From Escherichia coli (lineage in GTDB: Bacteria; Pseudomonadota; Gammaproteobacteria; Enterobacterales; Enterobacteriaceae), in the NCBI RefSeq assembly GCF_051903065.1, contig NZ_CP178439.1: a stretch of 64,000 bases of DNA; one strand, written 5' to 3'. The position numbers were made by a program. Positions 61,001-64,000 of this stretch are shown piece after piece. Numbering within the stretch: the stretch's first letter is position 1; each line of letters begins with the position of its first letter.

Positions 61001-64000
61001 TTGGGTGGTAGGTTTGCACAAGTACTGGGTCGACAACAATCTGATTTCCCCCTGAAGCTCCTTGAACCTTGCTTTCAGAAGCCAGGTGTATGAAACCCTA
61101 TTGGATAATATTTAAAGCCAAAATATGGGGATCTCGTATTCGGTGACAGGCATGGTATAAATGATGTGTCTGAGCAACCATCATTGATAATCATGGAGTG
61201 AGTCATGAAATTAAAATACCTTCTGTTATGTGCAACTCTGTCTGTCGCCTTTACCTCCTCTGCGGTCCTTGCATCTGAAAACGGGAAAAAACCGATCCCG
61301 GGCAAATCAGATGTGATGGTTGCCGATATTTGTTTAAAACCTGAAATCCAAAGTGAAACCGATTATAAAAAAACGAAAGAACTGGTAAGGACTGAGTTTG
61401 AAGAAAACTTGCCTGTTGGATCTAAAATCAAAGAAAAAGACTTGAATGCCGTAATTGAAGCATTTGCTACTCGTAAAAGGGACACGCCGGAGCGAGCGGA
61501 CCATTGCCAAGAAAACGTACGTGAAAGATACTGGGAAATGAACCCGGTGAAAGATAAATAAAATACATTCACGTTGTATAATATAGAGGCTTCAATTCTG
61601 AAGCCTTTTTTATTTTCAGATTATTTTGATTCTGACAATAATGAAATAAAATTGAGCATTATCGCTTAACACTGGATAAGAAAAAGAGCCATCTTTTATA
61701 TTGGACAGGTTTGAATTTAAGGAATTTTGGATTCACAGTTTTCTGCGTTATTAGACGGCAAGGGCAATCTGGTATGATTCACCTAACACACGAATCTGGA
61801 AGGAAAAGTATATGGGTGACCTGGTCAGCAAAAATAGCATTGACCGTTTAGAGCGATTTCATTCTTTGCTGGCGGGTCAGTACTGGACGTCCACTGACAG
61901 CATCCCTGAAGAGGGTATTGTGGCAGGGGATACACTGCTCATTACGTCTTTGCGTGGCACTGTTGCAAATAGTCGGTGGTGATAAACTTATCATCCCCTT
62001 TTGCTGATGGAGCTGCACATGAACCCATTCAAAGGCCGGCATTTTCAGCGTGACATCATTCTGTGGGCCGTACGCTGGTACTGCAAATACGGCATCAGTT
62101 ACCGTGAGCTGCAGGAGATGCTGGCTGAACGCGGAGTGAATGTCGATCACTCCACGATTTACCGCTGGGTTCAGCGTTATGCGCCTGAAATGGAAAAACG
62201 GCTGCGCTGGTACTGGCGTAACCCTTCCGATCTTTGCCCGTGGCACATGGATGAAACCTACGTGAAGGTCAATGGCCGCTGGGCGTATCTGTACCGGGCC
62301 GTCGACAGCCGGGGCCGCACTGTCGATTTTTATCTCTCCTCCCGTCGTAACAGCAAAGCTGCATACCGGTTTCTGGGTAAAATCCTCAACAACGTGAAGA
62401 AGTGGCAGATCCCGCGATTCATCAACACGGATAAAGCGCCCGCCTATGGTCGCGCGCTTGCTCTGCTCAAACGCGAAGGCCGGTGCCCGTCTGACGTTGA
62501 ACACCGACAGATTAAGTACCGGAACAACGTGATTGAATGCGATCATGGCAAACTGAAACGGATAATCAACGCCACGCTGGGATTTAAATCCATGAAGACG
62601 GCTTACGCCACCATCAAAGGTATTGAGGTGATGCGTGCACTACGCAAAGGCCAGGCCTCAGCATTTTATTATGGTGATCCCCTGGGCGAAATGCGCCTGG
62701 TAAGCAGAGTTTTTGAAATGTAAGGCCTTTGAATAAGACAAAAGGCTGCCTCATCGCTAACTTTGCAACAGTGCCCACTGATCCGCATGCCCGTTCCATA
62801 CAGAAGCTGGGCGAACAAACGATGCTCGCCTTCCAGAAAACCGAGGATGCGAACCACTTCATCCGGGGTCAGCACCACCGGCAAGCGCCGCGACGGCCGA
62901 GGTCTTCCGATCTCCTGAAGCCAGGGCAGATCCGTGCACAGCACCTTGCCGTAGAAGAACAGCAAGGCCGCCAATGCCTGACGATGCGTGGAGACCGAAA
63001 CCTTGCGCTCGTTCGCCAGCCAGGACAGAAATGCCTCGACTTCGCTGCTGCCCAAGGTTGCCGGGTGACGCACACCGTGGAAACGGATGAAGGCACGAAC
63101 CCAGTGGACATAAGCCTGTTCGGTTCGTAAACTGTAATGCAAGTAGCGTATGCGCTCACGCAACTGGTCCAGAACCTTGACCGAACGCAGCGGTGGTAAC
63201 GGCGCAGTGGCGGTTTTCATGGCTTGTTATGACTGTTTTTTTGTACAGTCTATGCCTCGGGCATCCAAGCAGCAAGCGCGTTACGCCGTGGGTCGATGTT
63301 TGATGTTATGGAGCAGCAACGATGTTACGCAGCAGGGCAGTCGCCCTAAAACAAAGTTAACCCAGGATGAGAACCTTGAAAGTATCATTGATGGCTGCGA
63401 AAGCGAAAAACGGCGTGATTGGTTGCGGTCCAGACATACCCTGGTCCGCGAAAGGGGAGCAGCTACTTTTTAAAGCATTGACCTACAATCAGTGGCTTCT
63501 GGTGGGTCGCAAGACGTTTGAATCTATGGGCGCACTCCCCAATAGGAAATACGCGGTCGTTACCCGCTCAGGTTGGACATCAAATGATGACAATGTAGTT
63601 GTATTTCAGTCAATCGAAGAGGCCATGGACAGGCTAGCTGAATTCACCGGTCACGTTATAGTGTCTGGTGGCGGAGAAATTTACCGAGAAACATTACCCA
63701 TGGCCTCTACGCTCCACTTATCGACGATCGACATCGAGCCAGAGGGGGATGTTTTCTTCCCGAGTATTCCAAATACCTTCGAAGTTGTTTTTGAGCAACA
63801 CTTTACTTCAAACATTAACTATTGCTATCAAATTTGGAAAAAGGGTTAACAAAGCTATGCAATCGACGGCAAAAAGCTTCGTTCGCTTCGCGCACTACGC
63901 CTTTTCCGCGATTGATAGCGACGTTATGCAGCCAAATCCCAACAATTAAGGGTCTTAAAATGGTAAAAGATTGGATTCCCATCTCTCATGATAATTACAA

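Follow-up and report, generated by a model that had tools for sequence, protein, structure and literature searches.

The second class 1 integron of the 64-kb window (the whole stretch of DNA that we analyzed) is, with a probability of roughly 0.9, a remnant that would express its gene cassettes and would be unable to move them by itself, that has an origin separate from the first integron of the same window, and that was inherited with an IncHI2 resistance region. The fragment occupies the right-hand end of the window and comprises the following features:

61956-62775, plus strand: IS26, left boundary of the integron fragment; its transposase matches the IS6-family model (E = 3.6e-83)
62776-63220, minus strand: remnant of intI1, its 5'-terminal 445 bp out of 1014 (148 codons plus 1 nt), with the ATG at 63220
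63105-63133, plus strand: Pc, variant PcH1, with -35 TGGACA (63105-63110), a 17-nt spacer and -10 TAAACT (63128-63133)
63224-63249, plus strand: P2 region, inactive form, with TTGTTA (63224-63229) and TACAGT (63244-63249)
63250-63356, plus strand: remaining part of attI1, up to the recombination point between G63356 and T63357
63357-63923, plus strand: dfrA14 gene cassette, with the CDS at 63376-63849 and attC at about 63847-63926
63924-64000, plus strand: start of an arr cassette (rifampicin ADP-ribosyltransferase), with the ATG at 63960 and 41 nt (13 codons) of the gene inside the window

The right end of IS26 directly abuts the intI1 remnant at 62776, and the rest of intI1 is replaced by the element. 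The first 148 residues of the open reading frame match positions 1-148 of the 337-residue integron-integrase model (E = 6e-103), leaving 148 of the 337 aa of a complete IntI1, and RefSeq labels the identical sequence as intI1, incomplete, with the C-terminus missing. A weak pattern search with an approximate query sequence gave no match to the 3' part of intI1 elsewhere in the window. The catalytic part of tyrosine recombinases is C-terminal; the integrase of the second integron, which is devoid of its C-terminal part including the catalytic region, is predicted to be non-functional, and neither integron of the window is likely to have a working integrase.

The original prediction had read the promoter of this integron as TGGACA/TAAACT and its P2 region as lacking the GGG insertion, and both readings hold exactly. 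Pc has TCG before the -10 hexamer, hence no TGN extended -10, and agrees in every respect with PcH1 (PMC2791841, Table 1); it is the sole match in a generic sigma-70 scan of positions 62700-63400. The hexamers of P2 are separated by 14 nt (63230-63243), without GGG, rather than by the 17 bp of the active form, so P2 is inactive. The translated remnant carries R32 and H39, the IntI1 R32_H39 variant that both PcW and PcH1 encode (PMC2791841). In a set of 321 class 1 integrons, 28% had PcH1 (TGGACA/TAAACT), which exceeded PcW about 4.5-fold in E. coli reporter assays (Jove et al. 2010, PMC2791841); judged by these published assays, PcH1 would be a promoter of medium strength here.

The remaining attI1 is identical to that of the first integron and of related plasmids and ends in the G/TT join, with divergence beginning right after ...AAACAAAGTTA. 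The first cassette exceeds the curated cut-off of the DfrA1-like model (302.5 bits, with 250 required) and is named dfrA14 at 100% by both AMRFinder and RefSeq in three byte-identical records, in agreement with reference DfrA14. Its start is most likely the TTG at 63376, as in RefSeq, which has AGGA 8 nt upstream, and less likely the ATG at 63367 of the mechanically called frame. On the bottom strand, the attC site (63847-63926) folds into the expected imperfect inverted-repeat hairpin with -19.9 kcal/mol (z = -2.4), and matches in other sequence contexts start at 63921-63923, which marks the boundary between the dfrA14 and arr cassettes. The locus combines three features of a class 1 integron: an attI1 site with the first cassette joined to it, an outward Pc within intI1 and a cassette ended by attC.

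The array had been described as dfrA14 followed by arr-2 and as running on beyond the window. The dfrA14 gene and the start of an arr cassette are indeed present; the allele is another matter, because records of arr-2 and of arr-3 alike match the bases at 63921-64000 at 100%, so that the 41 nt of the gene in the window fit either one. All identical relatives carry Arr-2. That the array continues is trivially so, since the window end cuts the arr gene. Positions 62776-64000 are byte-identical in all four relatives that we fetched (Salmonella sp., Leclercia, E. coli and S. Goldcoast), and each of the four has the same 2,250-bp IS26-bounded segment: intI1 remnant, attI1, dfrA14, arr-2, about 98 codons of cmlA, and IS26. 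There the array stops at a cmlA truncated by IS26, about 1 kb beyond the window position, and this truncation leaves no 3'-conserved segment (qacEdelta1-sul1). If the source molecule resembles these relatives, the window end would be followed after about 1,026 bp by the next IS26.

The first integron provides the direct comparison. It is organized as follows:

29249-33668, plus strand: first integron module including the flanking IS26 elements; the integron proper spans 30069-32848
29249-30068, plus strand: left IS26, G184
30069-30866: intI1 remnant, 798 bp, 266 of 337 codons
30751-30779: Pc, variant PcW, TGGACA/TAAGCT
32849-33668, plus strand: right IS26, G184, in the same orientation

Inside this pair of directly oriented IS26 copies (starting at 29249 and 32849, both plus), the order is attI1, aadA22, lnu(F) and 51 bp of the 3'-conserved segment, followed by IS26. 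The GGG insertion is present, making P2 active. The combination PcW-P2 (TGGACA/TAAGCT plus P2) is about 7 times as strong as PcW and is transcribed mainly from P2 (PMC2791841). PcH1 and PcW-P2 are among the five common configurations (PMC2791841), and neither promoter arrangement of the window is therefore unusual. The aminoglycoside gene at 31015-31806 scores just under the NCBIfam AadA1 cut-off, and AMRFinder names it aadA22, not aadA2, in the 100% identical record NZ_CP037959.1. To the right of the second IS26, positions 33669-36480 hold a mef(B) fragment, an SDR gene and sul3 (annotation from the matching region of pR18.0877_278k). Since sul3-type integrons typically end in such a tail, insertion of the aadA22-lnu(F) module appears to have taken place beside the remnant of a third integron-associated region.

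The IS26 elements themselves carry information. We counted 18 occurrences of the 14-nt terminal repeat across the window, which correspond to eight complete 820-bp copies besides fragments, and the copies fall into two allelic forms:

1048-1867, 6575-7394, 29249-30068 and 32849-33668: IS26 with the standard Tnp26 G184
5421-6202: partial IS26, G184
11150-11969, 50780-51599, 57590-58409 and 61956-62775: IS26 with AA at element nt 613-614 (Tnp26 G184N)
14944-14957: lone IS26 end

The two alleles, with four complete copies each, are interleaved within a single resistance region. The copy that truncates the second integron has the N184 form, which is known as IS26-v1 (PMC9019673) and appears to be what PMC12054066 calls IS15DI; PMC9019673 cites Pong et al. 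2019 for a report that the form (IS26-v1) is more active. No 8-bp target duplication borders this copy, the flanks being CTTTGCGT and CACTGATC, and for the copy at 61956-62775 we found neither target-site duplications nor inverted flank matches that would account for IS26 at intI1 nt 445. Elsewhere in the window, the 8-bp sequence CAATTTCT adjoins both outer ends (6567-6574 and 11970-11977) of an IS26-bounded unit, 6575-11969, that carries an AAC(3)-II gene at 10025-10909. This is the signature of insertion as a whole unit, although its two IS26 alleles differ.

We determined how widely these structures occur in PLSDB and in E. coli RefSeq genomes. The 3.6-kb segment 60400-64000, which comprises IncHI2 backbone, IS26, the intI1 remnant, dfrA14 and the start of arr, is covered to at least 80%, with an identity of up to 100%, by 85 plasmids of PLSDB and by 31 of the E. 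coli RefSeq genomes. Junctions were counted with queries that combined 60 nt of intI1 with a stretch of IS26, 27 nt, too short to start a match by itself. By this measure, the IS26 junction at intI1 nt 445 occurs in about 123 of 72,556 PLSDB plasmids, and the junction at nt 798 in about 580, including plasmids of Acinetobacter and Vibrio; for the 798 junction, a few joined-piece matches are among the top ones. Counts of 598 and 937 from queries of 50 nt IS26 plus 50 nt intI1 were discarded, as any IS26 near intI1 gave full coverage. The first integron module as a whole is present in about 270 plasmids. Two plasmids are especially informative. One, pCRKP-1215_1, a complete IncFII Klebsiella plasmid, has the 445 junction and lacks the 798 junction; its 445 junction is accompanied by the same PcH1 and inactive P2 and by a different array, dfrA12-gcuF-aadA2, its junction IS26 allele differs from that of the dfrA14-array plasmid, and the plasmid also has a second intI1, this one intact, which carries PcH1 and is followed by arr-2 in the first cassette position. 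The other, pR18.0877_278k (NZ_CP037959.1, Salmonella Goldcoast), carries both modules of the window together, with junctions, Pc/P2 sequences and IS26 alleles as in the window. It is an IncHI2-IncHI2A plasmid of a lineage described in PMC12054066, with a related one in PMC9019673, and its published resistance set, which closely matches that of the window, includes aac(3)-IId, aadA22, aph(6)-Id, arr-2, blaCTX-M-55, blaLAP-2, blaTEM-1, dfrA14, lnu(F), qnrS, sul3, tet(A) and others (PMC12054066).

These data bear on the central claim of the original prediction, that the two integrons were acquired independently rather than duplicated. The claim had been drawn from the Pc and P2 sequences and from an intI1 cut after about 445 bp in one integron and after about 798 bp in the other. 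Both lengths are exact, yet different breakpoints alone are insufficient proof, because IS26 can delete adjacent DNA and could have shortened a 798-bp remnant to 445 bp. On this account the second integron would be a duplicate of the first that has undergone such a deletion, a G-to-A change in the -10 hexamer, the loss of GGG and an exchange of cassettes. The alignment of the two remnants, which had been proposed as the check, might seem to favor it, as only the -10 G/A difference and the GGG indel, both in the promoters, interrupt 584 otherwise identical shared bases. This identity is uninformative, however, since the 5'-conserved segment is, to our knowledge, nearly identical in all clinical class 1 integrons. 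What the alignment does show is that Pc and P2 are not the same in the two integrons. Duplication would require at least four independent changes plus an exchange of the IS26 allele, and the two integrons have no cassette in common (aadA22-lnu(F) on one side, dfrA14-arr on the other). Each module is, moreover, found unchanged and separately in many unrelated plasmids, so that duplication is effectively refuted, and we give it almost no weight. That the two integrons have separate origins and are not copies of each other is well supported: they share no cassette, have unlike Pc and P2 sequences and adjoin different IS26 alleles, N184 at the 445 junction and G184 on both sides of the first integron, and each junction occurs elsewhere without the other, as the plasmid counts above and pCRKP-1215_1 illustrate.

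The part of the claim that did not stand concerns the replicon: the modules were already paired in published IncHI2 plasmids. Since both of them, with the same junctions and promoters, are in pR18.0877_278k, the present replicon most probably inherited them as a pair, and the independent events would date to the assembly of the ancestral resistance region. We also considered that the adjacency of the second integron to IncHI2 backbone might be an artefact of assembly, in which IS26 copies were collapsed or mis-joined. The window does contain eight full copies and fragments of the element, and its overall arrangement is unmatched by any single record searched in PLSDB and E. coli RefSeq: four large queries gave no single-place match above 74-83%, and for the last 12 kb of the window no record in either collection covers more than about 83% in one place. 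The very join in question, however, from backbone through IS26 and the 445-bp intI1 to dfrA14 and arr, has been sequenced by many laboratories, in 85 complete plasmids and with an identity reaching 100%, which makes a mis-join extremely improbable.

Separate origin and inheritance as a pair leave room for a more complex past of the second integron itself. The truncated platform (IS26, 445-bp intI1, PcH1 and attI1) and the dfrA14-arr array may have had separate histories, the array being added to an already truncated platform through homologous recombination in the 5'-conserved segment or through integrase supplied in trans. The identical junction, PcH1 and inactive P2 in front of a different array in pCRKP-1215_1 point in this direction, as does the other intI1 of the same plasmid, which is intact, has PcH1 and is followed by arr-2 as its first cassette. 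IS26 is without strong target specificity; an identical breakpoint therefore suggests common descent of the 445 platform. On the other hand, the argument rests on one second array, from which the exchange can be read in either direction, and the differing IS26 alleles at the junctions of the two plasmids could fit two independent insertions, or later gene conversion of IS26, as well. We consider separate histories of platform and array a possibility of somewhat over one in three. A bolder version, in which the truncated platform is a conserved, integrase-less docking site whose arrays are swapped at attI1 by IntI1 acting in trans from a co-resident integron, seems unlikely. If it were true, "dead" IS26-truncated integrons would still be able to gain cassettes in the field.

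Returning to our preferred reading, the remnant inherited with an IncHI2 region, the following sequence of events would account for the structure. IS26 would have removed intI1 beyond nt 445, keeping the 148 codons that bear Pc, attI1 and the cassettes. With P2 inactive, transcription would start at PcH1 and read the promoterless dfrA14 and arr genes as an operon, conferring resistance to trimethoprim through dfrA14 and to rifampicin through arr. Because there is no functional integrase, the array would be fixed, mobile only within an IS26-bounded segment or along with its IncHI2-type carrier. Separate IS26 events would have joined both integrons when an ancestral IncHI2 multiresistance region was put together, and the present replicon would have inherited that region.

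The second integron is thus an already described and widespread resistance module, and nothing about it is new. The value of the analysis is in annotation: the integron can be recognized as a fragment well known from IncHI2 plasmids, dfrA14-arr-2 truncated by IS26, and the promoter configurations can be named PcH1 without P2 and PcW-P2, both measured as intermediate (4.5 and 7 times PcW). The pair of junctions, together with the IS26 alleles, is a useful epidemiological marker, one that ties the sequence to the pR18.0877_278k-like lineage, which is spreading in Salmonella, also in the form of chromosomal islands.

Several other arrangements in the window deserve mention. Between 57590 and 62775, two inversely oriented IS26 copies enclose 3.5 kb of IncHI2 backbone (58410-61955) with umuC, umuD and three small ORFs; in the relatives, the backbone instead runs past umuC into a dsbA-family gene. 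Positions 16327-17272 and 28306-29251 form a 946-nt perfect inverted repeat around about 11 kb that contains a Tn3-family transposase fragment, ISEcp1-blaCTX-M, blaTEM, a gene for an FtsI-like penicillin-binding protein (25450-27198) and blaLAP; the 170-aa ORF in each arm of the repeat has no NCBIfam match. At the start of the window, an H-NS/StpA-like gene (767-1047) is cut at about codon 41 by the IS26 at 1048 and so joined to mph(A)-mrx-mphR (1937-4661), an arrangement reproduced by no record that we searched. In the relatives, it is the truncated cmlA of the second integron that precedes the IS26 on the mph(A) side. As the H-NS/StpA-like gene replaces the truncated cmlA before the IS26 at 1048, the source is rearranged relative to plasmids of the pR18.0877_278k type.

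It is instructive to compare the locus with known systems. The closest is the dfrA14-arr-2-(cmlA) fragment of IncHI2/IncHI2A plasmids (pR18.0877_278k and relatives from S. Agona, E. coli, Leclercia and Klebsiella), to which positions 62776-64000 are byte-identical. The window and pR18.0877_278k agree in the IS26 allele and its breakpoint at nt 445, in PcH1 with an inactive P2, and in the left-hand backbone (umuCD plus three small ORFs), and both have the module IS26-intI1(798)-PcW-P2-aadA22-lnu(F)-IS26. Two differences stand out: the mph(A) module follows truncated cmlA in the relatives and is joined to the truncated H-NS-like gene at the start of the window, and the umuCD backbone piece of the window is additionally bounded by a second, inverted IS26. 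Other IncHI2 plasmids have a long array, dfrA14-arr-2-cmlA5-blaOXA-10-aadA1 (PMC10729465); the first two cassettes are the same here (arr-2 as judged by the relatives), and all four identical relatives have the truncated form. The promoter is identical in sequence to the PcH1 configuration of Jove et al. 2010 (PMC2791841), likewise with P2 absent, but the integrase gene in which it is embedded is truncated here, so that the trade-off described in that work, of promoter strength against excision activity, has no bearing on this integron. Finally, the fragment resembles IS26 pseudo-compound transposons and translocatable units in that IS26 directly ends the resistance segment, with no target duplication; the likeness extends to a second, directly oriented IS26 2,250 bp downstream, which is present in the relatives, the window itself containing the left copy.
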